Below, in pieces: positions 39,338-64,000 of a stretch of DNA of 64,000 bases (its first letter is position 1; each line of letters starts with the position of its first letter). The DNA is from Glycera tridactyla (lineage: Eukaryota), in NCBI GenBank assembly GCA_965644265.1, contig OZ286475.1:76632001-76696000 (forward strand), given 5' to 3'. Both the position numbers and the translations under genes were made by a program. Below the pieces are notes generated by a model. That model made no database searches. It was not told where the DNA came from and was given only the letters and a program-made list of their open reading frames with translations.

Positions 39338-39629
39338 GCAATTTATTCAACAACGAACCAACTAACAGAAATATATCCAACACAGGTAGAGACAATACCC
39401 ACACAGGTAGAAGACATATTGCGTAGCGCGATGGATGGTGCAGGTATTGGTGCAGGAGAGACCATGTTACCTGCGGAGACATTAAGTAATCAAACAATCA
39501 ATCAATCGGAACTGGATAGTATTTTATCAAATGTGTCTTTTCCAGAGTTCCTCGACTTCGCATCACTTCAACCTCTTGGCGACAATAATCTTACTCAAAC
39601 AATAATACCGCCACCACCACCACAACCAC

Positions 39630-39663
<34 letters not shown>

Positions 39664-40533: not shown

Positions 40534-41725
40534 AATAGAAAACGTTACGCACTCTATTCTCAAATCAAGGTCCAAGTCTAGCGCCCATTCTCCACCTCGG
40601 TCTCGTTCTCCTTCCCCTTGTTCTTCCCACTCCTCCTCCTCTTGTTCTCCGAGCCGAAGCCACGATCGAAGCCGAGGTAAAAGCCGAGCTAGAAGCCGAG
40701 CTAGAAGCCGAAGCCAAGATAGAAGTCGAGGTAAAAGCCGAGCTAGAAGCCGAAGCCAAGATAGAACCCAAGATAGAAGCCGAGGTAGAAGCCAAGGTAG
40801 AGCCCGAGGTAAAAGCCGAGCTAGAAGCCGAGATAGAAGTCCAAGCCGAAGCCGAGGACGAAGCATGGGGCCGGAAAGTCGTTCGAATCGCTCTAAGAGT
40901 ATGAGTCGCCATACCGACTCTCATGAGGAGAGAAACCATCATCATCGCCGTGATTGTCGCCGTCGTTATGACGATAATGATGATCGCCGGTATCGCGGTC
41001 GTCGTGATGCTGGTGATAGTTGGCATCGTTCGGATCGTGGGGGGCGCCGGTGTCCTGAAATCGATCAATTTCGAAGTCACATGCGGTCTTTCTGGCAAAG
41101 GGATGGGGGGCGAAGCCACAGTTTTGTAGATTGGAATAGAAGAGGGGAGCGTTCCTTTAGAGAAGGACCAAGTCAAGCACGTTCGGACCACGAATACGAC
41201 TTCGACGATCAGAGCTACGATTGGAGAAACAGATACGGTTTATCTCTTAGTTACGAAGACTATTTAGCCTGGTATCGTTTTCAATCCCAATCTCAGAGTC
41301 ATCATCAGGTGTTGGGGTCGAGACAAGATTCCTCAGTTTGTTACTCCCCACATTCGTCTCTAGATTCGCATCGTCGGCGTTCCCAACAGTCAGACAATTA
41401 TTTTCACGGACAGTCTCACGAATATCCACGACCTTCAGAATTTTCACAATGGCAACCAGAACATCACCACCACCACCCCCTCACTCAGTATCCAAATCAG
41501 GCTCCACAGCCACAGCCACAACTACAACCACCGCCACCGCTACAACCACAATCCCGTGTACATTACAATCCCAATTTCATTCCACAGGAGAACCATGCCC
41601 AGAGAGAGAATCAAAATCAGACCCCAGATCAGTGGTTACGCGGGCCGAACGGTAGAGATGAGGTGGAATCATCGGAGATACCGAGATATTATACGCATAA
41701 ACAAGAGGCACGGGAGACAACATAG
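38029..41725 (+). CDS. Spliced immediate-early-like regulatory protein, ~1147 aa (poly-Q/P/S, basic NLS-like stretches, RS-repeat domain)
   Basis: Exon 38029-38339 joined via GT-AG intron 38340-38592 (polypyrimidine tract, CTAAT-like branch site) in frame to 38593-41725; 3444 nt = 1148 codons. A leader intron 37826-38028 ends immediately before the ATG. The regulatory function is inferred. Confidence 0.8.
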
Positions 41726-42218
41726 TCGCCTGTATAATCCTTCCCGTGGTATCGATGTTATGTGTGTATGTATGTATATACTATTTTGTGATCGCATGTA
41801 TCGAATGTTACGTCATGTTGTGTTATAACCTCTGTAGAGCTTCTCGGGTAGTCTCATTCACACATATGTAGAGAGACGTTTATATAAACTACTAAAACAA
41901 CTCTTTTCTCTTGTGTTTTTATTTTACCGGTATTTGTTCATAGATATTATTATCATCATCATCGCCATCCCTCTGCACCTATTTGATGACCCCCCTCCTC
42001 TTAATTTGTTTTGGGCCTAGAGAGTTAACCTACACTCCGTGACCCACTTGCCTCGTTCCAGAAGGAGGTGTAGACCTGACACAGATTGAGATGGAAGGCG
42101 TATAAGAACTAAACATTCGCCTTTGGGGATTTAGATGAGGATAGAAGAACGGGGAATCGAGTCTTAACAACAACAACTCCCTTCTCAGTATCATTATTTT
42201 AGACGGAGGAACGGGCTT

Positions 42219-44573
42219 GTGATGGCAGCAACCACACATAATGACCCTAACGGGGACATGGCGTGTATCTGGTTGTACCCGGCAGAGTTCTTAACGAAAG
42301 ACGAGCGAATGTTAGGTCAGCAGACAATCTTCCCGTACATGATCAAAAAGATCTTGAAGTTCGGCCCGGTATCCGAATTTTTCACCGATGCTTACAAAAC
42401 CCGACAACTGGTTCGCGTCGATCTTCGGGCCACCAGTAAACTAGCCGAGGATGAAGAGGCTTTGAGAAGAACGACGTTGAACTCGGTCCTACTGGACAAC
42501 AATCCCAAACACGGGAAACCGAACATGGTCGTACTTTGCGATAAGTATCTGCGCCGGCTCCTGAGTATTCTCCTGACTGTGTTTAAATGGAATCAGAGGC
42601 ACATCCACGACAAGGAAATCTATGAAGACATGTTAAAAGTTAAAAGGAACGTGCCGGGGGAAGAATTCGAAAACCTCTCCTTGCTTTCTAAACACAGTTA
42701 TGTGTTTCACGCCCGTTCCAAAGACTTCTTCCACATATCCGGAAACATTTCGGATTCTTATTCGATCTTGGAGCGCCTCGTGGGCAACAAGCTGGTCCCC
42801 TGGTGGTCTACCGCATTTTGGACCAATCTAGATATCGAGGGCATATCCGAGAGCAAAATCTTAAATAAACTGAGGTCGGAGTTTTCAGATTTAGTGAGGC
42901 TCTTTGAGAACTATAACCCTATCCCCGAGGGTTCTTACAGCGCCAACAATGAGCGGGTTTCCATGCCCCTGCAGATTGGTATGCACGTGCACGAAAACCT
43001 CGCACTCCAGCTGATTTCCGACGCTCACATTTACACGAAAGAGGACTGCGCTGGCGGAAAGACCAGAGTGGTGTTTAAGAAACCCGGGCGAACCATTCTT
43101 CCCGGCGGGCTCGTGGGAGCGACCCCAGACGTGGTGGTTTATTTCGCCGATAAACACACCGAAGAAACGGCGATGAATATCGAAAGAGAGGAGGAGGACG
43201 ATCACAGTTGCTTTGATAACTGGGACTGGTCGAACGATCACGAATTCGAACAGGAGGAAGCACCCGCGCCTAACCCGAACGAACATAAACCCTCCAGAAT
43301 ACCCCAATACATATACGAGTTGAAAACACTGACTAGGCGCAGGCTTTCTACCGAATCCATTAAAACCAAGCTCGACGAGTACTACATTGAACACACGTTA
43401 TGCAATGAGGGCGATTCGTCCAGTTTTATTTGGGTAGAAAGCCAAGGAGAGGCGCCCTACTATCACATAACATTGAACGAAGCCGAATCGCTAGGAATCT
43501 ACAACAAAGAGTTGAAGCAGAAAAAGGAGGAGGAGGAAGGGACTGACGCGGATCGTTGTTTTTCGTCGGCCATGAGGGCTGCGTCTCTGGTCATTCACTA
43601 TTTGGACGAGCCCCTACTCCTCCGACCCCCTATGCTAAAACTGAGTTCTGCTCCGCCGAACGCCAAACTCAACGACAAGTATGTCTTCAACCCAGAGAGC
43701 AGAGAAAAAATCTACGATAGAAAAATGAAGACAATGAAAACCGAGGGAGCCCAAAAGGGCTGTTCCTGTGGAGCGATCACAAATCCCTTTTTCCGGGGAT
43801 CCGACTTCCTATCGGCGCGTGTGACAAAAGAAGAAAACGCGAGGATCCAGGGACACCCCTCGCCCATCTGGAAGAAGCTTGAGGCCGGAGGCGATGTTGG
43901 AGATCGGGTCGATTTGAGTAAACATCAACACGGAGCGAACAGACAGCCGACCGAATACAGTAAATTTGACGATCCCCACGTTCTTCTTGCTCACATGGGG
44001 GAACACCGATACATTCTCCCCTGGGATAGTGTCGATGTTGGACATCACGGCTTCATCGGGGACACTCTCAACCCGAGGGCAAAATCTCGATGTGTGCTGT
44101 ACTCTTACGCCGAACCTCTTCAAAAATACGCCGTTATCGATTACGAGGTAGCCCCCTACGTCCTATCGCCAACGTCCGATTACTTCAAACAGATTCTACA
44201 GGAGGTTAACGCGTATCAACAGCTCAACGAGGAAATCCGAGCCTTCATAACGATCGTCTTCTTGTATCGAACCGAATCGGATGATGTCAGTGTAGAGTCG
44301 AATAGAGTGGCGGCAACTTACACGACGGAGGTTCGGATCACAAAAGCAATGATGGCGGTTTACACGGCGAACGTGATTTCTCAGGTTTTTCGAGAACACC
44401 AAGCGATCATTCGTTACTGCAAACAAGACCTCTATCCGGACTCCTGGTCGCACTCTGAGAAGAAAGAGCAGCGGAACCGCGAGCGAAAAACCGTCCAAAT
44501 GTACAAGCCTTTTCTGGACGAACTCGTCGAGGCCCTCCACAACACTAGGACGGAAACGTTTATAATGGGATAG
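42219..44573 (+). CDS. Alkaline exonuclease-like PD-(D/E)xK nuclease, herpesvirus UL12/BGLF5-type, 784 aa
   Basis: Ordered motifs LQIGMHVHENLA, GLVGATPDVVV, YIYELKT and SPTSDYFKQILQE, the last resembling the herpes NPRHPNFKQIL motif as I recall it. ATG at 42222. Confidence 0.8.
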   Translation: MMAATTHNDPNGDMACIWLYPAEFLTKDERMLGQQTIFPYMIKKILKFGPVSEFFTDAYKTRQLVRVDLRATSKLAEDEEALRRTTLNSVLLDNNPKHGKPNMVVLCDKYLRRLLSILLTVFKWNQRHIHDKEIYEDMLKVKRNVPGEEFENLSLLSKHSYVFHARSKDFFHISGNISDSYSILERLVGNKLVPWWSTAFWTNLDIEGISESKILNKLRSEFSDLVRLFENYNPIPEGSYSANNERVSMPLQIGMHVHENLALQLISDAHIYTKEDCAGGKTRVVFKKPGRTILPGGLVGATPDVVVYFADKHTEETAMNIEREEEDDHSCFDNWDWSNDHEFEQEEAPAPNPNEHKPSRIPQYIYELKTLTRRRLSTESIKTKLDEYYIEHTLCNEGDSSSFIWVESQGEAPYYHITLNEAESLGIYNKELKQKKEEEEGTDADRCFSSAMRAASLVIHYLDEPLLLRPPMLKLSSAPPNAKLNDKYVFNPESREKIYDRKMKTMKTEGAQKGCSCGAITNPFFRGSDFLSARVTKEENARIQGHPSPIWKKLEAGGDVGDRVDLSKHQHGANRQPTEYSKFDDPHVLLAHMGEHRYILPWDSVDVGHHGFIGDTLNPRAKSRCVLYSYAEPLQKYAVIDYEVAPYVLSPTSDYFKQILQEVNAYQQLNEEIRAFITIVFLYRTESDDVSVESNRVAATYTTEVRITKAMMAVYTANVISQVFREHQAIIRYCKQDLYPDSWSHSEKKEQRNRERKTVQMYKPFLDELVEALHNTRTETFIMG

Positions 44574-44601
44574 AGGCTTAAGGAGGCGGTTTTTAATATA
44601 T

Positions 44602-45270
44602 TTGTGTATCTATTTGTGTATCCATTCTCGCAAAGCTCTATCGGACCCGCTGTACACGTGGTCCCTCTCCTGTCCGCTGAGCGTATCTAAGATCATCAGA
44701 ACCGTGACCCCGTGCAACAGGTGCATAATAAAGGTGGACTGCGGGTGTCTTCTCCAGGCGCCCGGCGAATTCTACATTCCGCTTCAGGTAGCCGACTGCG
44801 ACCTGTCCACGACGCCGGCCGAGCCAACGATCGTCCCCGCCTACCCGGTAAACTTACCGGTCCTGCACTCTCTGTACAGCGCGGATCAACTCGACGATAT
44901 TCGCGGCAGCTCCGTCAAGGACGACTGGAACAACATAGACATTCCAGAATTTGAGCCGTTCGGGTACGAGTGGAATCAAACGGCGCAGGTTAGCGAAAAA
45001 TATTCTTCCGATCTAAAGAAACTAGCGGAGGAGAGCAGCAAACGAGCGGAGGTCTACCACACAAAGGCGGACGCGATGTTAAAAGAGGCAACGGATTTCA
45101 CTGACTTGAGTCTCAGCCACGCCAAAGATCTGGAGGAAAAGTTTGGCGATCTCAGTTGGTTGGGCACTCTGAATTTCGACACGGCCCAGGCCGGCGGTAT
45201 CATCGGCATAATCATAGTAACTCTGACCTTCATAATGGGCATATATAACTGTTGGCGGGTCACCAGATAG
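44602..45270 (+). CDS. C-terminal part of a class I viral fusion glycoprotein (baculovirus F/env-like); 3' exon or remnant
   Basis: PCNRCIIKVDCGC...FYIPLQVADC...YPVNLPVLHSL Cys pattern, helical stem and C-terminal TM (GGIIGIIIVTLTFIMGIY). No N-terminal ATG; possible splice acceptor at 44634-44635. Confidence 0.62.
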   Translation: MCIYLCIHSRKALSDPLYTWSLSCPLSVSKIIRTVTPCNRCIIKVDCGCLLQAPGEFYIPLQVADCDLSTTPAEPTIVPAYPVNLPVLHSLYSADQLDDIRGSSVKDDWNNIDIPEFEPFGYEWNQTAQVSEKYSSDLKKLAEESSKRAEVYHTKADAMLKEATDFTDLSLSHAKDLEEKFGDLSWLGTLNFDTAQAGGIIGIIIVTLTFIMGIYNCWRVTR

Positions 45271-45307
45271 TAGATTGTCGTCGTCGGATTGCTGAAGGCG
45301 CGTCGAA

Positions 45308-46957
45308 ATGGCCTCTCCGCGGCGCTCCGAAAATGACACTCAGATAGACTACGATACCTACGTGGATTTCATTCTAGAAAACAAAATAGACATAATCTCG
45401 GCGTTTGGAAACACGAGGTACCCGTTCATCCCAAACGAACTCACCGTTTTAGATCCCCTCTCTCAAGGCAACATTCACTTCCAGATAAAGAAGATTTTCG
45501 AGGAGTACCAACGAAAAGGCTGGATCGGCAAGAATCTCCGATACGTTTCCTCGGGACTGATTTCTAAAAAGGGGCTGATCCTGCCGTGTTCAGAGAAAGT
45601 AATCACGGGGCCCGGCGGAGGCCTGACTCTAACGTTCACCAGAGCCCCCGAGGTGGTCATGGGGAAACTGGCCAACCTCTTTTATTTTAAAGACCAAGTA
45701 AACGTCTCGACGGGTAAACGGACCCGCTACGTCAAAGATAGACTCCAAGATCCAACTCTTTATTACGCCATCCTTCAATTGTGTTTTCTACTACAGAGGG
45801 CTTGGAATCCGCCGAATCCGGGCACCGCTCACCCCTTTCGTAAAATCATCTCCGCTCTAGACTTTTTATTCAAGAAGCACACCTCCGCCGATCGCCTGGA
45901 GGAAAAAGAACATCTGCATTACATCCTAGAGAACATTCGGTTCAGCTCCGGCAAGATACTGCGCCGCTTCAACACGTTTCCGTTCAAGAGTCGCTATTCC
46001 TTCATTCACAAGTTCAACACGGAGACCAAACGTTTAAGTCTGGAATTCATAAACGAAGGAGCTCTGCTCCAGATAGCGGACGGGATCAAGCTGACCGAAA
46101 TTCTCCACGCCGAGGAACCCGACATCAACTTCGCGCGTCGCCAAAGCGTCATGGAAGACATCTTAAACACCTCCACGGGACTATCCAGCGAGAACTTGAT
46201 GCAATTGATACAGACCATTCTCCTGATGATGACCAGCGGTCGGGGGGAGACAAACTATCGGGAGTGGGGGGACCTCTCGAAGATTACCGCAAGAACAAAA
46301 GACTACGTGGATCAGGACATGCAGCTGCTGATCGTCAAACTCTCTGCGGCTCTTCGCTCTCGGATCAAAAATAAAATGATACAGTTGAATCACGAGAAGT
46401 GCACCTGCATGGCCAAGTGCGTCGGTCAGGAAATGGGAGCCCATCCGGAACTGACGAATCACTTCATCGACACGATTCACCCAACCTACCATTCGACCCT
46501 CAAGTGCGGCTTCTGCAATCTCTCCAACAGTTTGGAAAACACCACCTCGCAGAGGCCGCGAAAAGTGATCACGCAAGAACAACCCCAGTACCTTTCCTGC
46601 TCGTTGGACGGTTCCACAACGATCTACGCGGAACCCCTCTATTCGTTTAACTACAAACGAGACCCCCACAATCCGTCGGCGCCGATAACAAATGTCTCTG
46701 CTCCGTTTTTCCTTTACCTCACGAGCGTCTGTAACGTCTACGAGGAAACGAAAAAATCCCCGCGGAGTTCTTCCACAGGACGTTTTCTAACCGCCTGTTA
46801 CGGAAATAGACTCTGCGCTCAACGAGTGACGAATAAACTGGCTTCCTTCCTCAACAGCACGAAAGAAAACTCCTCGTCGAACTTCATGCAGAGTCCGCAG
46901 TGGTGGCAGTGTATATCGTGCGAAAACCTTTTAAAGGAGAAGCCCTCTCTGGGTTGA
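45308..46957 (+). CDS. Cys-rich (putative Zn-binding) viral protein, 549 aa, C-terminus cut by the inversion junction
   Basis: Good-context ATG; CTCMAKC, CGFC, CYGNRLC and CISC clusters. The last residues and the stop come from the inverted block starting at 46945. Confidence 0.78.
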   Translation: MASPRRSENDTQIDYDTYVDFILENKIDIISAFGNTRYPFIPNELTVLDPLSQGNIHFQIKKIFEEYQRKGWIGKNLRYVSSGLISKKGLILPCSEKVITGPGGGLTLTFTRAPEVVMGKLANLFYFKDQVNVSTGKRTRYVKDRLQDPTLYYAILQLCFLLQRAWNPPNPGTAHPFRKIISALDFLFKKHTSADRLEEKEHLHYILENIRFSSGKILRRFNTFPFKSRYSFIHKFNTETKRLSLEFINEGALLQIADGIKLTEILHAEEPDINFARRQSVMEDILNTSTGLSSENLMQLIQTILLMMTSGRGETNYREWGDLSKITARTKDYVDQDMQLLIVKLSAALRSRIKNKMIQLNHEKCTCMAKCVGQEMGAHPELTNHFIDTIHPTYHSTLKCGFCNLSNSLENTTSQRPRKVITQEQPQYLSCSLDGSTTIYAEPLYSFNYKRDPHNPSAPITNVSAPFFLYLTSVCNVYEETKKSPRSSSTGRFLTACYGNRLCAQRVTNKLASFLNSTKENSSSNFMQSPQWWQCISCENLLKEKPSLG

Positions 46958-48425
46958 AGACATACTTGTCGTTGAGTTTGGCGTTCGGCGGAGCAGAACT
47001 CAGTTTTAGCATAGGGGGTCGGAGGAGTAGGGGCTCGTCCAAATAGTGAATGACCAGAGACGCAGCCCTCATGGCCGACGAAAAACAACGATCCGCGTCA
47101 GTCCCTTCCTCCTCCTCCTTTTTCTGCTTCAACTCTTTGTTGTAGATTCCTAGCGATTCGGCTTCGTTCAATGTTATGTGATAGTAGGGCGCCTCTCCTT
47201 GGCTTTCTACCCAAATAAAACTGGACGAATCGCCCTCATTGCATAACGTGTGTTCAATGTAGTACTCGTCGAGCTTGGTTTTAATGGATTCGGTAGAAAG
47301 CCTGCGCCTAGTCAGTGTTTTCAACTCGTATATGTATTGGGGTATTCTGGAGGGTTTATTTTCGTTCGGGTTAGGCGCGGGTGCTTCCTCCTGTTCGAAT
47401 TCGTGATCGTTCGACCAGTCCCAGTTATCAAAGCAACTGTGATCGTCCTCCTCCTCTCTTTCGATATTCATCGCCGTTTCTTCGGTGTGTTTATCGGCGA
47501 AATAAACCACCACGTCTGGGGTCGCTCCCACGAGCCCGCCGGGAAGAATGGTTCGCCCGGGTTTCTTAAACACCACTCTGGTCTTTCCGCCAGCGCAGTC
47601 CTCTTTCGTGTAAATGTGAGCGTCGGAAATCAGCTGGAGTGCGAGGTTTTCGTGCACGTGCATACCAATCTGCAGGGGCATGGAAACCCGCTCATTGTTG
47701 GCGCTGTAAGAACCCTCGGGGATAGGGTTATAGTTCTCAAAGAGCCTCACTAAATCTGAAAACTCCGACCTCAGTTTATTTAAGATTTTGCTCTCGGATA
47801 TGCCCTCGATATCTAGATTGGTCCAAAATGCGGTAGACCACCAGGGGACCAGCTTGTTGCCCACGAGGCGCTCCAAGATCGAATAAGAATCCGAAATGTT
47901 TCCGGATATGTGGAAGAAGTCTTTGGAACGGGCGTGAAACACATAACTGTGTTTAGAAAGCAAGGAGAGGTTTTCGAATTCTTCCCCCGGCACGTTCCTT
48001 TTAACTTTTAACATGTCTTCATAGATTTCCTTGTCGTGGATGTGCCTCTGATTCCATTTAAACACAGTCAGGAGAATACTCAGGAGCCGGCGCAGATACT
48101 TATCGCAAAGTACGACCATGTTCGGTTTCCCGTGTTTGGGATTGTTGTCCAGTAGGACCGAGTTCAACGTCGTTCTTCTCAAAGCCTCTTCATCCTCGGC
48201 TAGTTTACTGGTGGCCCGAAGATCGACGCGAACCAGTTGTCGGGTTTTGTAAGCATCGGTGAAAAATTCGGATACCGGGCCGAACTTCAAGATCTTTTTG
48301 ATCATGTACGGGAAGATTGTCTGCTGACCTAACATTCGCTCGTCTTTCGTTAAGAACTCTGCCGGGTACAACCAGATACACGCCATGTCCCCGTTAGGGT
48401 CATTATGTGTGGTTGCTGCCATCAC
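46884..48425 (-). pseudogene. Inverted, C-terminally truncated nuclease copy 1 (513 aa)
   Basis: Identical N-terminus through ...KYVFNPE, then an antisense-derived tail. Keeps the TPD and ELK motifs and lacks the FKQIL motif. Confidence 0.88.
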
Positions 48426-48988
48426 AAGCCCGTTCCTCCGTCTAAAATAATGATACTGAGAAGGGAGTTGTTGTTGTTAAGACTCGATTCCCCGTTCTTC
48501 TATCCTCATCTAAATCCCCAAAGGCGAATGTTTAGTTCTTATACGCCTTCCATCTCAATCTGTGTCAGGTCTACACCTCCTTCTGGAACGAGGCAAGTGG
48601 GTCACGGAGTGTAGGTTAACTCTCTAGGCCCAAAACAAATTAAGAGGAGGGGGGTCATCAAATAGGTGCAGAGGGATGGCGATGATGATGATAATAATAT
48701 CTATGAACAAATACCGGTAAAATAAAAACACAAGAGAAAAGAGTTGTTTTAGTAGTTCTTCTTTATATAAACGTCTCTCTACATATGTGTGAATGAGACT
48801 ACCCGAGAAGCTCTACAGAGGTTATAACACAACATGACGTAACATTCGATACATGCGATCACAAAATAGTATATACATACATAGATAGAACCCAAGATAG
48901 AAGCCGAGGTAGAAGCCAAGGTAGAGCCCGAGGTAAAAGCCGAGCTAGAAGCCGAGATAGAAGTCCAAGCCGAAGCCGAGGACGAAGC

Positions 48989-49855
48989 ATGGGGCCGGAA
49001 AGTCGTTCGAATCGCTCTAAGAGTATGAGTCGCCATACCGACTCTCATGAGGAGAGAAACCATCATCATCGCCGTGATTGTCGCCGTCGTTATGACGATA
49101 ATGATGATCGCCGGTATCGCGGTCGTCGTGATGCTGGTGATAGTTGGCATCGTTCGGATCGTGGGGGGCGCCGGTGTCCTGAAATCGATCAATTTCGAAG
49201 TCACATGCGGTCTTTCTGGCAAAGGGATGGGGGGCGAAGCCACAGTTTTGTAGATTGGAATAGAAGAGGGGAGCGTTCCTTTAGAGAAGGACCAAGTCAA
49301 GCACGTTCGGACCACGAATACGACTTCGACGATCAGAGCTACGATTGGAGAAACAGATACGGTTTATCTCTTAGTTACGAAGACTATTTAGCCTGGTATC
49401 GTTTTCAATCCCAATCTCAGAGTCATCATCAGGTGTTGGGGTCGAGACAAGATTCCTCAGTTTGTTACTCCCCACATTCGTCTCTAGATTCGCATCGTCG
49501 GCGTTCCCAACAGTCAGACAATTATTTTCACGGACAGTCTCACGAATATCCACGACCTTCAGAATTTTCACAATGGCAACCAGAACATCACCACCACCAC
49601 CCCCTCACTCAGTATCCAAATCAGGCTCCACAGCCACAGCCACAGCCACAACTACAACCACCGCCACCGCTACAACCACAATCCCGTGTACATTACAATC
49701 CCAATTTCATTCCACAGGAGAACCATGCCCAGAGAGAGAATCAGAATCAGACCCCAGATCAGTGGTTACGCGGGCCGAACGGTAGAGATGAGGTGGAATC
49801 ATCGGAGATACCGAGATATTATACGCATAAACAAGAGGCACGGGAGACAACATAG
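48989..49855 (+). pseudogene. 3' fragment of the IE-like gene (288 aa from an internal Met), repeat unit 2
   Basis: Matches the C-terminus of the 38029-41725 protein with one extra PQ. Confidence 0.82.
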
Positions 49856-50354
49856 TCGCCTGTATAATCCTTCCCGTGGTATCGATGTTATGTGTGTATG
49901 TATGTATATACTATTTTGTGATCGCATGTATCGAATGTTACGTCATGTTGTGTTATAACCTCTGTAGAGCTTCTCGGGTAGTCTCATTCACACATATGTA
50001 GAGAGACGTTTATATAAAGAAGAACTACTAAAACAACTCTTTTCTCTTGTGTTTTTATTTTACCGGTATTTGTTCATAGATATTATTATCATCATCATCG
50101 CCATCCCTCTGCACCTATTTGATGACCCCCCTCCTCTTAATTTGTTTTGGGCCTAGAGAGTTAACCTACACTCCGTGACCCACTTGCCTCGTTCCAGAAG
50201 GAGGTGTAGACCTGACACAGATTGAGATGGAAGGCGTATAAGAACTAAACATTCGCCTTTGGGGATTTAGATGAGGATAGAAGAACGGGGAATCGAGTCT
50301 TAACAACAACAACTCCCTTCTCAGTATCATTATTTTAGACGGAGGAACGGGCTT

Positions 50355-52709: not shown

Positions 52710-52737
52710 AGGCTTAAGGAGGCGGTTTTTAATATAT

Positions 52738-53406
52738 TTGTGTATCTATTTGTGTATCCATTCTCGCAAAGCTCTATCGGACCCGCTGTACACGTGGTCC
52801 CTCTCCTGTCCGCTGAGCGTATCTAAGATCATCAGAACCGTGACCCCGTGCAACGGGTGCATAATAAAGGTGGACTGCGGGTGTCTTCTCCAGGCGCCCG
52901 GCGAATTCTACATTCCGCTTCAGGTAGCCGACTGCGACCTGTCCACGACGCCGGCCGAGCCAACGATCGTCCCCGCCTACCCGGTAAACTTACCGGTCCT
53001 GCACTCTCTGTACAGCGCGGATCAACTCGACGATATTCGCGGCAGCTCCGTCAAGGACGACTGGAACAACATAGACATTCCAGAATTTGAGCCGTTCGGG
53101 TACGAGTGGAATCAAACGGCGCAGGTTAGCGAAAAATATTCTTCCGATCTAAAGAAACTAGCGGAGGAGAGCAGCAAACGAGCGGAGGTCTACCACACAA
53201 AGGCGGACGCGATGTTAAAAGAGGCAACGGATTTCACTGACTTGAGTCTCAGCCACGCCAAAGATCTGGAGGAAAAGTTTGGCGATCTCAGTTGGTTGGG
53301 CACTCTGAATTTCGACACGGCCCAGGCCGGCGGTATCATCGGCATAATCATAGTAACTCTGACCTTCATAATGGGCATATATAACTGTTGGCGGGTCACC
53401 AGATAG
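52738..53406 (+). CDS. Fusion glycoprotein C-terminal fragment, copy 2
   Basis: Same as 44602-45270 except R>G (base 52855). Confidence 0.62.
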   Translation: MCIYLCIHSRKALSDPLYTWSLSCPLSVSKIIRTVTPCNGCIIKVDCGCLLQAPGEFYIPLQVADCDLSTTPAEPTIVPAYPVNLPVLHSLYSADQLDDIRGSSVKDDWNNIDIPEFEPFGYEWNQTAQVSEKYSSDLKKLAEESSKRAEVYHTKADAMLKEATDFTDLSLSHAKDLEEKFGDLSWLGTLNFDTAQAGGIIGIIIVTLTFIMGIYNCWRVTR

Positions 53407-53443
53407 TAGATTGTCGTCGTCGGATTGCTGAAGGCGCGTCGAA

Positions 53444-55093: not shown

Positions 55094-56561
55094 AGACATA
55101 CTTGTCGTTGTGTTTGGCGTTCGGCGGAGCAGAACTCAGTTTTAGCATAGGGGGTCGGAGGAGTAGGGGCTCGTCCAAATAGTGAATGACCAGAGACGCA
55201 GCCCTCATGGCCGACGAAAAACAACGATCCGCGTCAGTCCCTTCCTCCTCCTCCTTTTTCTGCTTCAACTCTTTGTTGTAGATTCCTAGCGATTCGGCTT
55301 CGTTCAATGTTATGTGATAGTAGGGCGCCTCTCCTTGGCTTTCTACCCAAATAAAACTGGACGAATCGCCCTCATTGCATAACGTGTGTTCAATGTAGTA
55401 CTCGTCGAGCTTGGTTTTAATGGATTCGGTAGAAAGCCTGCGCCTAGTCAGTGTTTTCAACTCGTATATGTATTGGGGTATTCTGGAGGGTTTATGTTCG
55501 TTCGGGTTAGGCGCGGGTGCTTCCTCCTGTTCGAATTCGTGATCGTTCGACCAGTCCCAGTTATCAAAGCAACTGTGATCGTCCTCCTCCTCTCTTTCGA
55601 TATTCATCGCCGTTTCTTCGGTGTGTTTATCGGCGAAATAAACCACCACGTCTGGGGTCGCTCCCACGAGCCCGCCGGGAAGAATGGTTCGCCCGGGTTT
55701 CTTAAACACCACTCTGGTCTTTCCGCCAGCGCAGTCCTCTTTCGTGTAAATGTGAGCGTCGGAAATCAGCTGGAGTGCGAGGTTTTCGTGCACGTGCATA
55801 CCAATCTGCAGGGGCATGGAAACCCGCTCATTGTTGGCGCTGTAAGAACCCTCGGGGATAGGGTTATAGTTCTCAAAGAGCCTCACTAAATCTGAAAACT
55901 CCGACCTCAGTTTATTTAAGATTTTGCTCTCGGATATGCCCTCGATATCTAGATTGGTCCAAAATGCGGTAGACCACCAGGGGACCAGCTTGTTGCCCAC
56001 GAGGCGCTCCAAGATCGAATAAGAATCCGAAATGTTTCCGGATATGTGGAAGAAGTCTTTGGAACGGGCGTGAAACACATAACTGTGTTTAGAAAGCAAG
56101 GAGAGGTTTTCGAATTCTTCCCCCGGCACGTTCCTTTTAACTTTTAACATGTCTTCATAGATTTCCTTGTCGTGGATGTGCCTCTGATTCCATTTAAACA
56201 CAGTCAGGAGAATACTCAGGAGCCGGCGCAGATACTTATCGCAAAGTACGACCATGTTCGGTTTCCCGTGTTTGGGATTGTTGTCCAGTAGGACCGAGTT
56301 CAACGTCGTTCTTCTCAAAGCCTCTTCATCCTCGGCTAGTTTACTGGTGGCCCGAAGATCGACGCGAACCAGTTGTCGGGTTTTGTAAGCATCGGTGAAA
56401 AATTCGGATACCGGGCCGAACTTCAAGATCTTTTTGATCATGTACGGGAAGATTGTCTGCTGACCTAACATTCGCTCGTCTTTCGTTAAGAACTCTGCCG
56501 GGTACAACCAGATACACGCCATGTCCCCGTTAGGGTCATTATGTGTGGTTGCTGCCATCAC
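55020..56561 (-). pseudogene. Inverted truncated nuclease copy 2
   Basis: As 46884-48425 with the H allele and an L>H change. Confidence 0.88.
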
Positions 56562-57124
56562 AAGCCCGTTCCTCCGTCTAAAATAATGATACTGAGAAGG
56601 GAGTTGTTGTTGTTAAGACTCGATTCCCCGTTCTTCTATCCTCATCTAAATCCCCAAAGGCGAATGTTTAGTTCTTATACGCCTTCCATCTCAATCTGTG
56701 TCAGGTCTACACCTCCTTCTGGAACGAGGCAAGTGGGTCACGGAGTGTAGGTTAACTCTCTAGGCCCAAAACAAATTAAGAGGAGGGGGGTCATCAAATA
56801 GGTGCAGAGGGATGGCGATGATGATGATAATAATATCTATGAACAAATACCGGTAAAATAAAAACACAAGAGAAAAGAGTTGTTTTAGTAGTTCTTCTTT
56901 ATATAAACGTCTCTCTACATATGTGTGAATGAGACTACCCGAGAAGCTCTACAGAGGTTATAACACAACATGACGTAACATTCGATACATGCGATCACAA
57001 AATAGTATATACATACATAGATAGAACCCAAGATAGAAGCCGAGGTAGAAGCCAAGGTAGAGCCCGAGGTAAAAGCCGAGCTAGAAGCCGAGATAGAAGT
57101 CCAAGCCGAAGCCGAGGACGAAGC

Positions 57125-57991
57125 ATGGGGCCGGAAAGTCGTTCGAATCGCTCTAAGAGTATGAGTCGCCATACCGACTCTCATGAGGAGAGAAACCATC
57201 ATCATCGCCGTGATTGTCGCCGTCGTTATGACGATAATGATGATCGCCGGTATCGCGGTCGTCGTGATGCTGGTGATAGTTGGCATCGTTCGGATCGTGG
57301 GGGGCGCCGGTGTCCTGAAATCGATCAATTTCGAAGTCACATGCGGTCTTTCTGGCAAAGGGATGGGGGGCGAAGCCACAGTTTTGTAGATTGGAATAGA
57401 AGAGGGGAGCGTTCCTTTAGAGAAGGACCAAGTCAAGCACGTTCGGACCACGAATACGACTTCGACGATCAGAGCTACGATTGGAGAAACAGATACGGTT
57501 TATCTCTTAGTTACGAAGACTATTTAGCCTGGTATCGTTTTCAATCCCAATCTCAGAGTCATCATCAGGTGTTGGGGTCGAGACAAGATTCCTCAGTTTG
57601 TTACTCCCCACATTCGTCTCTAGATTCGCATCGTCGGCGTTCCCAACAGTCAGACAATTATTTTCACGGACAGTCTCACGAATATCCACGACCTTCAGAA
57701 TTTTCACAATGGCAACCAGAACATCACCACCACCACCCCCTCACTCAGTATCCAAATCAGGCTCCACAGCCACAGCCACAGCCACAACTACAACCACCGC
57801 CACCGCTACAACCACAATCCCGTGTACATTACAATCCCAATTTCATTCCACAGGAGAACCATGCCCAGAGAGAGAATCAGAATCAGACCCCAGATCAGTG
57901 GTTACGCGGGCCGAACGGTAGAGATGAGGTGGAATCATCGGAGATACCGAGATATTATACGCATAAACAAGAGGCACGGGAGACAACATAG
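57125..57991 (+). pseudogene. 3' fragment of the IE-like gene, repeat unit 3
   Basis: Identical translation to 48989-49855. Confidence 0.82.
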
Positions 57992-58490
57992 TCGCCTGTA
58001 TAATCCTTCCCGTGGTATCGATGTTATGTGTGTATGTATGTATATACTATTTTGTGATCGCATGTATCGAATGTTACGTCATGTTGTGTTATAACCTCTG
58101 TAGAGCTTCTCGGGTAGTCTCATTCACACATATGTAGAGAGACGTTTATATAAAGAAGAACTACTAAAACAACTCTTTTCTCTTGTGTTTTTATTTTACC
58201 GGTATTTGTTCATAGATATTATTATCATCATCATCGCCATCCCTCTGCACCTATTTGATGACCCCCCTCCTCTTAATTTGTTTTGGGCCTAGAGAGTTAA
58301 CCTACACTCCGTGACCCACTTGCCTCGTTCCAGAAGGAGGTGTAGACCTGACACAGATTGAGATGGAAGGCGTATAAGAACTAAACATTCGCCTTTGGGG
58401 ATTTAGATGAGGATAGAAGAACGGGGAATCGAGTCTTAACAACAACAACTCCCTTCTCAGTATCATTATTTTAGACGGAGGAACGGGCTT

Positions 58491-60845
58491 GTGATGGCAG
58501 CAACCACACATAATGACCCTAACGGGGACATGGCGTGTATCTGGTTGTACCCGGCAGAGTTCTTAACGAAAGACGAGCGAATGTTAGGTCAGCAGACAAT
58601 CTTCCCGTACATGATCAAAAAGATCTTGAAGTTCGGCCCGGTATCCGAATTTTTCACCGATGCTTACAAAACCCGACAACTGGTTCGCGTCGATCTTCGG
58701 GCCACCAGTAAACTAGCCGAGGATGAAGAGGCTTTGAGAAGAACGACGTTGAACTCGGTCCTACTGGACAACAATCCCAAACACGGGAAACCGAACATGG
58801 TCGTACTTTGCGATAAGTATCTGCGCCGGCTCCTGAGTATTCTCCTGACTGTGTTTAAATGGAATCAGAGGCACATCCACGACAAGGAAATCTATGAAGA
58901 CATGTTAAAAGTTAAAAGGAACGTGCCGGGGGAAGAATTCGAAAACCTCTCCTTGCTTTCTAAACACAGTTATGTGTTTCACGCCCGTTCCAAAGACTTC
59001 TTCCACATATCCGGAAACATTTCGGATTCTTATTCGATCTTGGAGCGCCTCGTGGGCAACAAGCTGGTCCCCTGGTGGTCTACCGCATTTTGGACCAATC
59101 TAGATATCGAGGGCATATCCGAGAGCAAAATCTTAAATAAACTGAGGTCGGAGTTTTCAGATTTAGTGAGGCTCTTTGAGAACTATAACCCTATCCCCGA
59201 GGGTTCTTACAGCGCCAACAATGAGCGGGTTTCCATGCCCCTGCAGATTGGTATGCACGTGCACGAAAACCTCGCACTCCAGCTGATTTCCGACGCTCAC
59301 ATTTACACGAAAGAGGACTGCGCTGGCGGAAAGACCAGAGTGGTGTTTAAGAAACCCGGGCGAACCATTCTTCCCGGCGGGCTCGTGGGAGCGACCCCAG
59401 ACGTGGTGGTTTATTTCGCCGATAAACACACCGAAGAAACGGCGATGAATATCGAAAGAGAGGAGGAGGACGATCACAGTTGCTTTGATAACTGGGACTG
59501 GTCGAACGATCACGAATTCGAACAGGAGGAAGCACCCGCGCCTAACCCGAACGAAAATAAACCCTCCAGAATACCCCAATACATATACGAGTTGAAAACA
59601 CTGACTAGGCGCAGGCTTTCTACCGAATCCATTAAAACCAAGCTCGACGAGTACTACATTGAACACACGTTATGCAATGAGGGCGATTCGTCCAGTTTTA
59701 TTTGGGTAGAAAGCCAAGGAGAGGCGCCCTACTATCACATAACATTGAACGAAGCCGAATCGCTAGGAATCTACAACAAAGAGTTGAAGCAGAAAAAGGA
59801 GGAGGAGGAAGGGACTGACGCGGATCGTTGTTTTTCGTCGGCCATGAGGGCTGCGTCTCTGGTCATTCACTATTTGGACGAGCCCCTACTCCTCCGACCC
59901 CCTATGCTAAAACTGAGTTCTGCTCCGCCGAACGCCAAACTCAACGACAAGTATGTCTTCAACCCAGAGAGCAGAGAAAAAATCTACGATAGAAAAATGA
60001 AGACAATGAAAACCGAGGGAGCCCAAAAGGGCTGTTCCTGTGGAGCGATCACAAATCCCTTTTTCCGGGGATCCGACTTCCTATCGGCGCGTGTGACAAA
60101 AGAAGAAAACGCGAGGATCCAGGGACACCCCTCGCCCATCTGGAAGAAGCTTGAGGCCGGAGGCGATGTTGGAGATCGGGTCGATTTGAGTAAACATCAA
60201 CACGGAGCGAACAGACAGCCGACCGAATACAGTAAATTTGACGATCCCCACGTTCTTCTTGCTCACATGGGGGAACACCGATACATTCTCCCCTGGGATA
60301 GTGTCGATGTTGGACATCACGGCTTCATCGGGGACACTCTCAACCCGAGGGCAAAATCTCGATGTGTGCTGTACTCTTACGCCGAACCTCTTCAAAAATA
60401 CGCCGTTATCGATTACGAGGTAGCCCCCTACGTCCTATCGCCAACGTCCGATTACTTCAAACAGATTCTACAGGAGGTTAACGCGTATCAACAGCTCAAC
60501 GAGGAAATCCGAGCCTTCATAACGATCGTCTTCTTGTATCGAACCGAATCGGATGATGTCAGTGTAGAGTCGAATAGAGTGGCGGCAACTTACACGACGG
60601 AGGTTCGGATCACAAAAGCAATGATGGCGGTTTACACGGCGAACGTGATTTCTCAGGTTTTTCGAGAACACCAAGCGATCATTCGTTACTGCAAACAAGA
60701 CCTCTATCCGGACTCCTGGTCGCACTCTGAGAAGAAAGAGCAGCGGAACCGCGAGCGAAAAACCGTCCAAATGTACAAGCCTTTTCTGGACGAACTCGTC
60801 GAGGCCCTCCACAACACTAGGACGGAAACGTTTATAATGGGATAG
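58491..60845 (+). CDS. Alkaline exonuclease-like nuclease, full-length copy 3
   Basis: Identical translation to copy 2. Confidence 0.8.
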   Translation: MMAATTHNDPNGDMACIWLYPAEFLTKDERMLGQQTIFPYMIKKILKFGPVSEFFTDAYKTRQLVRVDLRATSKLAEDEEALRRTTLNSVLLDNNPKHGKPNMVVLCDKYLRRLLSILLTVFKWNQRHIHDKEIYEDMLKVKRNVPGEEFENLSLLSKHSYVFHARSKDFFHISGNISDSYSILERLVGNKLVPWWSTAFWTNLDIEGISESKILNKLRSEFSDLVRLFENYNPIPEGSYSANNERVSMPLQIGMHVHENLALQLISDAHIYTKEDCAGGKTRVVFKKPGRTILPGGLVGATPDVVVYFADKHTEETAMNIEREEEDDHSCFDNWDWSNDHEFEQEEAPAPNPNENKPSRIPQYIYELKTLTRRRLSTESIKTKLDEYYIEHTLCNEGDSSSFIWVESQGEAPYYHITLNEAESLGIYNKELKQKKEEEEGTDADRCFSSAMRAASLVIHYLDEPLLLRPPMLKLSSAPPNAKLNDKYVFNPESREKIYDRKMKTMKTEGAQKGCSCGAITNPFFRGSDFLSARVTKEENARIQGHPSPIWKKLEAGGDVGDRVDLSKHQHGANRQPTEYSKFDDPHVLLAHMGEHRYILPWDSVDVGHHGFIGDTLNPRAKSRCVLYSYAEPLQKYAVIDYEVAPYVLSPTSDYFKQILQEVNAYQQLNEEIRAFITIVFLYRTESDDVSVESNRVAATYTTEVRITKAMMAVYTANVISQVFREHQAIIRYCKQDLYPDSWSHSEKKEQRNRERKTVQMYKPFLDELVEALHNTRTETFIMG

Positions 60846-60873
60846 AGGCTTAAGGAGGCGGTTTTTAATATAT

Positions 60874-61542
60874 TTGTGTATCTATTTGTGTATCCATTCT
60901 CGCAAAGCTCTATCGGACCCGCTGTACACGTGGTCCCTCTCCTGTCCGCTGAGCGTATCTAAGATCATCAGAACCGTGACCCCGTGCAACGGGTGCATAA
61001 TAAAGGTGGACTGCGGGTGTCTTCTCCAGGCGCCCGGCGAATTCTACATTCCGCTTCAGGTAGCCGACTGCGACCTGTCCACGACGCCGGCCGAGCCAAC
61101 GATCGTCCCCGCCTACCCGGTAAACTTACCGGTCCTGCACTCTCTGTACAGCGCGGATCAACTCGACGATATTCGCGGCAGCTCCGTCAAGGACGACTGG
61201 AACAACATAGACATTCCAGAATTTGAGCCGTTCGGGTACGAGTGGAATCAAACGGCGCAGGTTAGCGAAAAATATTCTTCCGATCTAAAGAAACTAGCGG
61301 AGGAGAGCAGCAAACGAGCGGAGGTCTACCACACAAAGGCGGACGCGATGTTAAAAGAGGCAACGGATTTCACTGACTTGAGTCTCAGCCACGCCAAAGA
61401 TCTGGAGGAAAAGTTTGGCGATCTCAGTTGGTTGGGCACTCTGAATTTCGACACGGCCCAGGCCGGCGGTATCATCGGCATAATCATAGTAACTCTGACC
61501 TTCATAATGGGCATATATAACTGTTGGCGGGTCACCAGATAG
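60874..61542 (+). CDS. Fusion glycoprotein C-terminal fragment, copy 3
   Basis: Identical translation to copy 2. Confidence 0.62.
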   Translation: MCIYLCIHSRKALSDPLYTWSLSCPLSVSKIIRTVTPCNGCIIKVDCGCLLQAPGEFYIPLQVADCDLSTTPAEPTIVPAYPVNLPVLHSLYSADQLDDIRGSSVKDDWNNIDIPEFEPFGYEWNQTAQVSEKYSSDLKKLAEESSKRAEVYHTKADAMLKEATDFTDLSLSHAKDLEEKFGDLSWLGTLNFDTAQAGGIIGIIIVTLTFIMGIYNCWRVTR

Positions 61543-61579
61543 TAGATTGTCGTCGTCGGATTGCTGAAGGCGCGTCGAA

Positions 61580-63229
61580 ATGGCCTCTCCGCGGCGCTCC
61601 GAAAATGACACTCAGATAGACTACGATACCTACGTGGATTTCATTCTAGAAAACAAAATAGACATAATCTCGGCGTTTGGAAACACGAGGTACCCGTTCA
61701 TCCCAAACGAACTCACCGTTTTAGATCCCCTCTCTCAAGGCAACATTCACTTCCAGATAAAGAAGATTTTCGAGGAGTACCAACGAAAAGGCTGGATCGG
61801 CAAGAATCTCCGATACGTTTCCTCGGGACTGATTTCTAAAAAGGGGCTGATCCTGCCGTGTTCAGAGAAAGTAATCACGGGGCCCGGCGGAGGCCTGACT
61901 CTAACGTTCACCAGAGCCCCCGAGGTGGTCATGGGGAAACTGGCCAACCTCTTTTATTTTAAAGACCAAGTAAACGTCTCGACGGGTAAACGGACCCGCT
62001 ACGTCAAAGATAGACTCCAAGATCCAACTCTTTATTACGCCATCCTTCAATTGTGTTTTCTACTACAGAGGGCTTGGAATCCGCCGAATCCGGGCACCGC
62101 TCACCCCTTTCGTAAAATCATCTCCGCTCTAGACTTTTTATTCAAGAAGCACACCTCCGCCGATCGCCTGGAGGAAAAAGAACATCTGCATTACATCCTA
62201 GAGAACATTCGGTTCAGCTCCGGCAAGATACTGCGCCGCTTCAACACGTTTCCGTTCAAGAGTCGCTATTCCTTCATTCACAAGTTCAACACGGAGACCA
62301 AACGTTTAAGTCTGGAATTCATAAACGAAGGAGCTCTGCTCCAGATAGCGGACGGGATCAAGCTGACCGAAATTCTCCACGCCGAGGAACCCGACATCAA
62401 CTTCGCGCGTCGCCAAAGCGTCATGGAAGACATCTTAAACACCTCCACGGGACTATCCAGCGAGAACTTGATGCAATTGATACAGACCATTCTCCTGATG
62501 ATGACCAGCGGTCGGGGGGAGACAAACTATCGGGAGTGGGGGGACCTCTCGAAGATTACCGCAAGAACAAAAGACTACGTGGATCAGGACATGCAGCTGC
62601 TGATCGTCAAACTCTCTGCGGCTCTTCGCTCTCGGATCAAAAATAAAATGATACAGTTGAATCACGAGAAGTGCACCTGCATGGCCAAGTGCGTCGGTCA
62701 GGAAATGGGAGCCCATCCGGAACTGACGAATCACTTCATCGACACGATTCACCCAACCTACCATTCGACCCTCAAGTGCGGCTTCTGCAATCTCTCCAAC
62801 AGTTTGGAAAACACCACCTCGCAGAGGCCGCGAAAAGTGATCACGCAAGAACAACCCCAGTACCTTTCCTGCTCGTTGGACGGTTCCACAACGATCTACG
62901 CGGAACCCCTCTATTCGTTTAACTACAAACGAGACCCCCACAATCCGTCGGCGCCGATAACAAATGTCTCTGCTCCGTTTTTCCTTTACCTCACGAGCGT
63001 CTGTAACGTCTACGAGGAAACGAAAAAATCCCCGCGGAGTTCTTCCACAGGACGTTTTCTAACCGCCTGTTACGGAAATAGACTCTGCGCTCAACGAGTG
63101 ACGAATAAACTGGCTTCCTTCCTCAACAGCACGAAAGAAAACTCCTCGTCGAACTTCATGCAGAGTCCGCAGTGGTGGCAGTGTATATCGTGCGAAAACC
63201 TTTTAAAGGAGAAGCCCTCTCTGGGTTGA
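61580..63229 (+). CDS. Cys-rich 549-aa protein, copy 3
   Basis: Identical translation to copies 1 and 2. Confidence 0.78.
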   Translation: MASPRRSENDTQIDYDTYVDFILENKIDIISAFGNTRYPFIPNELTVLDPLSQGNIHFQIKKIFEEYQRKGWIGKNLRYVSSGLISKKGLILPCSEKVITGPGGGLTLTFTRAPEVVMGKLANLFYFKDQVNVSTGKRTRYVKDRLQDPTLYYAILQLCFLLQRAWNPPNPGTAHPFRKIISALDFLFKKHTSADRLEEKEHLHYILENIRFSSGKILRRFNTFPFKSRYSFIHKFNTETKRLSLEFINEGALLQIADGIKLTEILHAEEPDINFARRQSVMEDILNTSTGLSSENLMQLIQTILLMMTSGRGETNYREWGDLSKITARTKDYVDQDMQLLIVKLSAALRSRIKNKMIQLNHEKCTCMAKCVGQEMGAHPELTNHFIDTIHPTYHSTLKCGFCNLSNSLENTTSQRPRKVITQEQPQYLSCSLDGSTTIYAEPLYSFNYKRDPHNPSAPITNVSAPFFLYLTSVCNVYEETKKSPRSSSTGRFLTACYGNRLCAQRVTNKLASFLNSTKENSSSNFMQSPQWWQCISCENLLKEKPSLG

Positions 63230-64000
63230 AGACATACTTGTCGTTGTGTTTGGCGTTCGGCGGAGCAGAACTCAGTTTTAGCATAGGGGGTCGGAGGAGT
63301 AGGGGCTCGTCCAAATAGTGAATGACCAGAGACGCAGCCCTCATGGCCGACGAAAAACAACGATCCGCGTCAGTCCCTTCCTCCTCCTCCTTTTTCTGCT
63401 TCAACTCTTTGTTGTAGATTCCTAGCGATTCGGCTTCGTTCAATGTTATGTGATAGTAGGGCGCCTCTCCTTGGCTTTCTACCCAAATAAAACTGGACGA
63501 ATCGCCCTCATTGCATAACGTGTGTTCAATGTAGTACTCGTCGAGCTTGGTTTTAATGGATTCGGTAGAAAGCCTGCGCCTAGTCAGTGTTTTCAACTCG
63601 TATATGTATTGGGGTATTCTGGAGGGTTTATGTTCGTTCGGGTTAGGCGCGGGTGCTTCCTCCTGTTCGAATTCGTGATCGTTCGACCAGTCCCAGTTAT
63701 CAAAGCAACTGTGATCGTCCTCCTCCTCTCTTTCGATATTCATCGCCGTTTCTTCGGTGTGTTTATCGGCGAAATAAACCACCACGTCCGGGGTCGCTCC
63801 CACGAGCCCGCCGGGAAGAATGGTTCGCCCGGGTTTCTTAAACACCACTCTGGTCTTTCCGCCAGCGCAGTCCTCTTTCGTGTAAATGTGAGCGTCGGAA
63901 ATCAGCTGGAGTGCGAGGTTTTCGTGCACGTGCATACCAATCTGCAGGGGCATGGAAACCCGCTCATTGTTGGCGCTGTAAGAACCCTCGGGGATAGGGT
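63156..64000 (-). pseudogene. Inverted truncated nuclease copy 3 (runs off the window edge)
   Basis: Matches inverted copy 2 in translation; one extra synonymous change at ~63789. Confidence 0.85.

Follow-up and report, generated by a model that had tools for sequence, protein, structure and literature searches.

A viral fold-back with an array of forward and inverted repeats at its hub in a Glycera tridactyla chromosome

The window, a stretch of 64,000 nucleotides of Glycera tridactyla DNA (contig OZ286475.1, positions 76,632,001 to 76,696,000), contains part of a viral insertion in an invertebrate chromosome, gene-dense and CpG-rich. The repeat array within it is probably the 8136-bp centre of a head-to-head fold-back of herpes-type viral DNA, which would have been multiplied in the host through recombination between direct repeats of 1.25 kb created by a small inversion.

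Structure of the array

Self-BLAST and junction searches place the switch from forward 46944 to the reverse complement of 43699 (J1) at 46944, 55080 and 63216, and the switch from the reverse complement of 41767 back to forward 40759 (J2) at 48883, 57019 and, outside the window, window-relative 65155. These results confirm a preliminary description of the locus, which had proposed two fixed junctions recurring every 8136 bp with 1 nt of microhomology at J2. The alternating inverted repeats of about 1.94 kb and the spacers of 3.25 and about 1.0 kb that it had also reported measure 1933-1939, 3245 and 1013 bp. Its iterated 8136-bp array stands as far as the repeats are concerned, but the first forward copy lacks 12 bp, giving a first period of 8124 bp, and the array is short in the assembly, with J1 and J2 present three times each before a third junction, beyond the window, ends it. 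The features of this region are as follows.

40652-40857, forward strand: minisatellite with a 12-bp period, containing the J2 (40759) and J3 (40750) breakpoints
40759-42008, forward strand: 1.25-kb segment, inverted in the right arm
41767-43699, forward strand: segment B, the first forward copy of the 1.93-kb inverted repeat (six to seven copies in the assembly)
43700-46944, forward strand: segment C, the 3245-bp fold-back spacer, present in three copies
46945-48883, reverse strand: inverted B copy 1, from J1 (46944) to J2 (48883)
48883-57018, forward strand: inner unit 2 (A-B-C-inverted B), 8136 bp
57019-64000, forward strand: inner unit 3, one base different from unit 2

Unit 3 continues to the third J2 and is followed by a fourth 1.25-kb repeat, by J3 and by the inverted right arm. 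J3 joins 42008 to the reverse complement of 40750 at window-relative 66411, 2.4 kb beyond the window end. The DNA past it runs inverted through 40750-27517 and never regains the forward strand, which makes the array the hub of a giant fold-back; there are seven strand switches in total, and the locus leaves the array on the opposite strand. Because the segment 40759-42008 is inverted in the right arm, it forms a direct repeat every 8.1 kb, with four copies that start at 40759, 48883, 57019 and window-relative 65155, and the array begins and finishes exactly with this repeat. The repeats of the locus (1.9-15 kb at 99.6-100% identity) are far above chance.

The junctions have 0-2 nt of microhomology overall, with 1 nt at J3 and none at J1 on its sole testable side. 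Microhomologies of 0-1 nt support junctions of the template-switch type, as suggested previously, or of the end-joining type. A DNA search of the genome at J1 returned six local matches only and no copy that extends past 46944. No notable palindrome was found in 40500-46944, and local inverted similarity at J2 and J3 is at the random level (equalled or bettered by 68% of 2000 random pairs).

Fold-back arms and host setting

The left arm lies within the window and includes the following features.

27517-27588, forward strand: (GAT)24 tract at the left host/virus junction
27589-40758, forward strand: left fold-back arm, gene-dense viral DNA that is not depleted in CpG
34624-40536, forward strand: 2954-bp tandem duplication, found in the left arm only, with 0-nt microhomology
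38933-41725, forward strand: 930-aa Q/S/R-rich ORF, continuous over 40750-40759 in the left arm only

Its inverted twin, the right arm, lies outside the window (L007:2411-L008:9656). The left arm has the uninverted orientation, since only there is the 930-aa ORF unbroken across 40750-40759. It is missing a 6.85-kb and an 80-bp segment, its first ORF region carries a premature stop and frameshifts, and the two copies of its 2954-bp duplication differ by two 1-nt indels. The (GAT)24 tract is internal to the viral DNA and recurs in the inverted arm and also on contig C11, where the same virus has inserted a second time. Between the arms there are 19 substitutions in 10,210 bp (0.19%) and seven indel sites that range from 1 bp to 6.85 kb. 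Eleven of 15 classified substitutions are non-synonymous, which matches the neutral prediction; one gene has 41 non-synonymous to 8 synonymous codons between the C11 copy and the right arm, so a non-synonymous excess does not discriminate well between readings. Six of 11 transitions are of the CpG-decay type against 24% expected (p = 0.03, in a test that rests on these 11 transitions). The C11 copy agrees with the right arm at four of five sites, so the damage is lopsided, and this could reflect two viral templates with different histories.

Host DNA is found on both sides of the viral insertion, beyond which the left-flank host repeat reappears in unchanged orientation. The insertion has a CpG observed/expected ratio of 1.11 against 0.52 and 0.41, and ORFs cover 71-89% against 0-16%. 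A 52.5-kb host element bounded by (GAT)n sits inside the viral DNA, which resumes beyond the element. On sequence grounds the locus can be classed as an endogenous viral element, joined to the host on both sides and ageing with it. Two candidate interpretations were discarded: the right (GAT)29 tract is not a virus end or an integration repeat, because viral DNA restarts 52.5 kb further on, and the two arms are not mis-joined alleles, because their flanks differ.

Origin of the array

J2 and J3 seem to bound a single inversion of 1.25 kb. At one end their breakpoints are separated by 9 bp and at the other by 241 bp, a closeness with a chance of about 2e-5 over 19.4 kb, or of about 0.09 for the first pair if the breaks are confined to the minisatellite. 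The earlier proposal that a single template-switch event (J1 and J2) was iterated is not supported, as J2 is the partner of J3 rather than J1 and the locus makes seven switches with an inverted exit. The favored series would begin with germ-line capture of viral DNA by end-joining or microhomology-mediated repair. A single fold-back join, J1, with its 3245-bp spacer would then tie two copies head to head, and one two-switch event in the right arm would invert 40759-42008 at J2 and J3, losing 8 bp, doubling 242 bp and leaving the piece as a direct repeat of its left-arm counterpart; these two steps could have occurred in either order. Unequal exchange between the repeats, or pop-out and re-entry of a circle, would add one unit and later a second, and at least one gene conversion would make the first inverted arm match its forward neighbor.

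Variation among the copies is consistent with this series. There are eight variable sites among seven copies; units 2 and 3 differ at one site (1 base in 8136) and units 1 and 2 at seven. A 6-bp indel is common to both inner forward copies and missing from both outer ones, and at two sites inverted copy 1 has the forward type while inverted copies 2 and 3 share an allele. These shared variants fit stepwise recombination between direct repeats. Rolling-circle or unequal recombination, before or after integration, had been put forward at the outset, and the variant pattern favors unequal recombination after integration. It also counts against the proposed series in one respect: the simplest crossover must be confined to some 120 bp (41887-42008), unless the first forward copy acquired three private changes afterwards.

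Several other origins have to be weighed against these data. It is rather unlikely that a single replicative catastrophe, combining MMBIR with a rolling circle during or after integration, produced J1, J2, the repeats and J3 together. The 0-2 nt microhomology at all junctions and the near identity of units 2 and 3 speak for it, and the cited part of PMC4352052 interprets a repeated junction as rolling circle. However, it expects the same alleles in forward copies 2-4 and in inverted copies 1-3, an expectation that forward copy 4 and inverted copy 1 violate at three sites, and it leaves the reciprocal fit of J2 and J3 as coincidence. We regard as quite unlikely an integration of a whole defective viral genome that had been rearranged and amplified in an infected cell. 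The DNA is viral, and the rearrangements on C11 indicate that the virus may be prone to such shuffling, but divergence is nested (0.19% between arms, then seven sites and one site between successive units) and the 40500-46944 interval lacks a notable palindrome. The nested sharing of variants also departs from the equal-age single burst expected of herpes defective-interfering DNA, a pattern that later conversion could blur.

An assembly error in the number of units, from chained haplotypes or a doubled unit across real junctions, or at the extreme an entirely artefactual array, is doubtful to about the same degree. The single difference between units 2 and 3 would be explained, as would the 2954-bp duplication, whose copies differ merely by indels of the sequencing-error type. 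Against this, the inner copies have alleles absent from both outer copies, and the 19 substitutions, large indels and distinct flanks that separate the arms are impossible for a one-molecule fold-back chimera. The arm divergence with its large indels, together with the host element within the viral DNA, makes a pure artefact unlikely. An ODIRA inverted triplication with palindromic junctions that later eroded into kilobase spacers is highly improbable. Spacers of 40-80 bp can grow to 1.1-34.9 kb through secondary junctions, according to the cited part of PMC10766186, but the exit is inverted after seven switches, sequence past 46944 never resumes, and inverted similarity at J2 and J3 does not rise above random.

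Known rearrangements include fold-back inversions or inverted duplications with deletion, as well as inversions flanked by short duplications. The locus shares with them the head-to-head join, the asymmetric spacer, and the 8 bp lost and 242 bp doubled; it differs in that foreign viral DNA is involved and that the inversion would then have seeded a tandem array. A likeness to ODIRA or DUP-TRP/INV-DUP, suggested in the preliminary description, failed on defining features of both, with spacers of kilobase size and neither J2 nor J3 bordered by a local inverted repeat. One unit does read A-B-C-inverted B-A-B-C, an inverted triplicated segment between duplicated segments. The human PLP1 DUP-TRP/INV-DUP with rolling-circle quadruplication, as the cited part of PMC4352052 describes it, likewise has a 1-nt microhomology junction and a repeated junction, and it spans hundreds of kilobases as opposed to about 6 kb here. 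DUP-TRP/INV-DUP has two junctions and then continues into distal sequence, whereas here a third junction follows and nothing past 46944 was found in the genome. No inverted low-copy repeat of the PLP1 kind was found in 40500-46944; the sequence beyond J1 is missing. ODIRA, in the cited part of PMC10766186, also alternates direct and inverted copies through strand switches. It carries a replication origin within the amplicon, places an inverted center between two direct copies and regains the original orientation, the last in contrast to the odd number of switches and opposite-strand exit seen here, where the spacers are 1.0 and 3.2 kb and J2 and J3 lack short inverted repeats.

Viral genes and affinity

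Two further ORFs lie in the array.

42222-44573, forward strand: 783-aa candidate exonuclease-like ORF
45308-46957, forward strand: 549-aa ORF, no family assigned, with its end crossing J1

The 783-aa ORF contains, in order, what we take by eye to be lambda/herpes alkaline-exonuclease-like motifs, including D-(D/E)xK. Profile and sequence searches, including a full HMMER search, gave no match to it, and its single-sequence model has a pLDDT of 33.5, too low to be of use. Read-through may end ahead of J1 at poly(A)-like hexamers, which lie at 44727, 46370 and 46832. A 992-aa ORF has the layout of a maturational protease joined to a disordered scaffold that has an internal start, an arrangement that occurs in Herpesvirales (PMC13030845). 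Its sole PHROGs match is a head maturation protease (weak, E = 0.023, on a motif chosen beforehand); there is no Pfam, PDB or homolog match, and the single-sequence model has a pLDDT of 40.0, again too low to be of use. A fold search with the single-sequence model returned no match at E<=0.001. Residues 740-1150 of a C11 ORF have an Atlas feature score of 0.95 to viral AEP clusters, which points to an AEP-type primase and identifies the fold class only, since the matched clusters are not herpesviral. A 1251-aa ORF resembles an HK97-fold major capsid protein in size only and had no match in family, structure or viral-contig searches.

Genome-wide searches with PF02500 (whose control was silent), PF03237 and PF00136 found no terminase ATPase or family B DNA polymerase of the virus, and a motif scan of 18 stretches found none. 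These absences carry little weight because the insertions are fragments. An intronless polymerase match on contig C59 was rejected as part of the virus, being fragmented and without a DNA match to it. Protein relatives were absent among 1.84 billion representative proteins (one query), from three word-based searches, and from viral contigs, metagenome contigs and solved structures; no ORF searched against Pfam matched a herpes family. The AEP primase, the protease-scaffold-like ORF and the exonuclease motifs suggest, at the level of sequence, a deep herpes-like lineage, and the virus is likely to be herpes-type and undescribed.

A herpes defective-interfering unit has an origin and a cleavage-packaging signal. 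Herpes simplex defective genomes and amplicons (PMC548291) are similarly head-to-tail repeats of a rearranged herpes-like piece; the present array differs in being chromosomal, with three units and copies of different ages. Endogenous Herpesvirales-like regions are described from lancelet and Capitella in the cited part of PMC5552708, and from starfish and ribbon worm in that of 10.1101/2025.04.19.649669. According to these excerpts they too are large, intron-poor chromosomal viral DNA with herpes-type gene candidates, but they were placed by DNA polymerase, and here no polymerase and no protein relatives were detected. Tomato endogenous pararetroviruses in inverted repeats give siRNAs, in the cited part of PMC9868043, and resemble this locus as integrated viral DNA in inverted and tandem repeats; that case concerns a plant with expression shown, and this one an animal and a large DNA virus known from DNA alone.

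Our literature search returned no account of the locus, which may be included in the supplementary region list of a bioRxiv survey. The locus documents, base by base, how a tandem array can arise from a fold-back and a small inversion, a route that is simpler than ODIRA or a rolling circle and is visible only once the junction beyond the window is included. Of greater importance than the array is the virus itself, whose long ORFs, amounting to tens of kilobases and without detected relatives, point to an unsampled lineage of large DNA viruses with a lophotrochozoan-type host. It is very doubtful, although conceivable, that an undescribed deep herpes-type lineage of annelid-like animals was captured recently and that the host keeps and multiplies its fold-backs as a heritable antiviral locus, in which read-through of J1 would yield long hairpin or antisense transcripts that target the viral nuclease gene and which would have arisen twice in one genome. 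Both insertions of the virus carry arrays with inversions; the one on C11 consists of shuffled viral pieces, with 2.0-kb and 6.1-6.25-kb repeats and a 1.0-kb inversion.

Map of the array and its fold-back

The window covers positions 76,632,001-76,696,000 of an 81-Mb contig in a 2.04-Gb genome, and the array is real in the assembly. Self-comparison bears out the segment map of the preliminary description, including two junctions that each recur every 8136 bp and 1 nt of microhomology at J2. Three segments are reiterated in the order A-B-C-inverted B, with spacers of 3245 and 1013 bp between inverted copies, and a DNA search of the whole genome returned six matches per query, all of them here.

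Segments and junctions of the array (window-relative positions)
Segment A: 40759-41766
Segment B: 41767-43699
Segment C: 43700-46944
J1 (46944 to the reverse complement of 43699): 46944, 55080 and 63216, every 8136 bp
J2 (reverse complement of 41767 to 40759): 48883, 57019 and 65155 (beyond the right end), every 8136 bp

Past the third J2, the forward strand reaches only 42008 and then flips to the reverse complement of 40750 (J3, window-relative 66411), again with 1 nt of microhomology. Because an inverted run back through 40750-27517 continues after J3, the array forms the centre of a fold-back in which the strand switches seven times, joining a left arm (27589-40758) to its inverted twin. 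This right arm carries 6.85-kb and 80-bp segments that the left arm lacks, and a 2954-bp unit is present twice in the left arm and once in the right.

A fold-back chimera formed in the library would yield identical arms, but these are set apart by 19 substitutions over 10,210 bp (0.19%) and by seven indel sites. Eleven of 15 classified substitutions are non-synonymous (p = 1.0 versus neutral 0.75), a test weakened because, in a second insertion of the virus on contig C11, a single gene shows 41 non-synonymous against 8 synonymous codon differences from the right arm, many of the changes being conservative (754-aa ORF; L008:7214-9478 versus L042). Diversifying selection in the virus is a possible cause of this codon excess. 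CpG-decay changes account for 6 of 11 arm transitions (p = 0.03; four in the left arm, two in the right), and C11 agrees with the right arm at four of five sites. If 1-5e-9 changes per site and year are assumed, the fold-back would date back about 0.2-1 million years.

Proposed origin and growth of the array

J2 and J3 enter at 40759 and 40750, with partner breakpoints at 41767 and 42008, respectively. Along the right arm they can be read as a single inversion of 40759-42008 in which 8 bp would have been lost and 242 bp doubled. Such agreement has a chance probability of ~2e-5 over the element, although that of the first pair rises to ~0.09 if breaks favour the local minisatellite. The right arm has the derived orientation, since a 930-aa ORF is unbroken across the 40750/40759 point in the left arm. 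If the inversion occurred within a head-to-head dimer, it would have set up a 1.25-kb direct repeat with the left-arm copy, at a distance of 8.1 kb. The array starts and stops exactly with this repeat (the 40759-42008 piece), and recombination between the repeats could add A-B-C-inverted B units without a new junction. The structure behaves as a fold-back inversion that later underwent unequal recombination. Most of the feature is accounted for by established steps of repair and recombination, in a sequence that differs from the preliminary description's one template-switch event followed by amplification.

Eight variant sites across seven assembled copies suggest how units accumulated. The first forward copy is distinct from all others at three sites, a 6-bp indel common to the two inner forward copies is missing in both outer ones, and units 2 and 3 are one base apart. 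At two sites inverted copies 2 and 3 are alike, whereas inverted copy 1 has the state of the inner forward copies, the outcome expected of gene conversion. The pattern fits stepwise growth, even though the simplest crossover would be confined to ~120 bp unless the first copy was altered later. A single rolling circle fits less well, since the pattern it predicts fails at three sites in the fourth forward copy and the first inverted copy.

The suggested resemblance to ODIRA is not supported. ODIRA, as described in PMC10766186, depends on short inverted repeats lying near each other and on a switch back to the original strand; neither applies here, though products of eroded ODIRA can show spacers of kilobases. 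DUP-TRP/INV-DUP (PMC4352052) has two junctions and then resumes distal sequence; its geometry is present in one unit but not in the locus as a whole.

Viral DNA and its host setting

From 27589 onward, CpG observed/expected is 1.11 and long ORFs cover 71-89%, versus 0.52 and 0.41 and 0-16% in the flanks. A 52.5-kb host element (window-relative ~86,044-138,519; L009:2044-L073:4519), non-coding and satellite-filled with (GAT)n at each end, splits the viral DNA after the right arm, and viral sequence picks up again beyond it for ~32 kb. At least 40 genomic copies match its left end at 95-100% identity, preceded by a (GAT)n tract in all 10 inspected; in one of four copies tested, the right end lies ~53 kb away at a (GAT)n tract. 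It is possibly a giant microsatellite-targeting mobile element. The left-flank host repeat recurs beyond the insertion in unchanged orientation.

Host repeat and second insertion
Window 7231-15283 and 23570-27519, again at L080-L081 beyond the insertion: host segmental repeat, copies 85-97% identical, with 91-bp and ~230-bp tandem units
C11 20286100 to ~20375000 (L041-L045, L084-L088): further insertion of this virus

The C11 insertion is 89-99% identical to the window virus in the overlap. Its long ORFs include the primase, an 826-aa membrane glycoprotein, the RING protein and an ORF region of ~2000 aa, and shuffled pieces form an array there too, made up of a duplication of 2017 bp and of units of 6.1-6.25 kb with an inversion of 1.0 kb. 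In the left flank, 1477-bp direct repeats (15284-16760 and 22057-23533; 99.9% identical) surround 5.3 kb with a 21-bp minisatellite and look LTR-like and young. The host mitochondrial code is invertebrate, not vertebrate, ascidian or echinoderm, and TTAGGG-type repeats occur at one contig end. Both features suggest a lophotrochozoan host, and its COX1 sequence appears annelid-like.

Identity of the virus

The virus is more surprising than the array. It is probably of herpes type, although none of the proteins searched has a detectable relative. A 1516-aa ORF contains an AEP primase domain (Atlas 0.95; the matched viral AEP clusters are non-herpes). Inside the array, a 783-aa ORF carries what we take, by eye, to be exonuclease motifs. 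A 992-aa ORF with an ordered N-terminus, Q-rich tail and internal start has a single PHROGs match, to head maturation protease (E = 0.023), on a motif noted beforehand; herpes protease-scaffold proteins have this layout in the excerpt of PMC13030845. Other ORFs encode an AEP and superfamily-2 helicase fusion (DEAD, E = 0.0019), a RING protein (E = 3.7e-4) and a caspase-like protein (E = 6.7e-6) in which the usual histidine motif is absent by eye. Genome profile searches and a motif scan found neither terminase nor polymerase of this virus.

Adjoining the caspase-like ORF are back-to-back ORFs (L082:2204-3178 and 3251-3922), without a profile match, that we take to resemble the superfamily-3 helicase half of a circular ssDNA virus Rep. 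Elsewhere, close to a telomere, a fragmented region that resembles a virus (C59:264000-277000; L058, L059) has a family B polymerase and, by eye, dUTPase-like and helicase-like ORFs, with zero DNA matches to the virus studied here.

Tomato inverted-repeat viral insertions produce siRNAs (PMC9868043). By a bold and improbable analogy, transcription crossing J1 would make RNA, either antisense or hairpin, directed at the exonuclease-like gene, although poly(A)-like hexamers precede J1.
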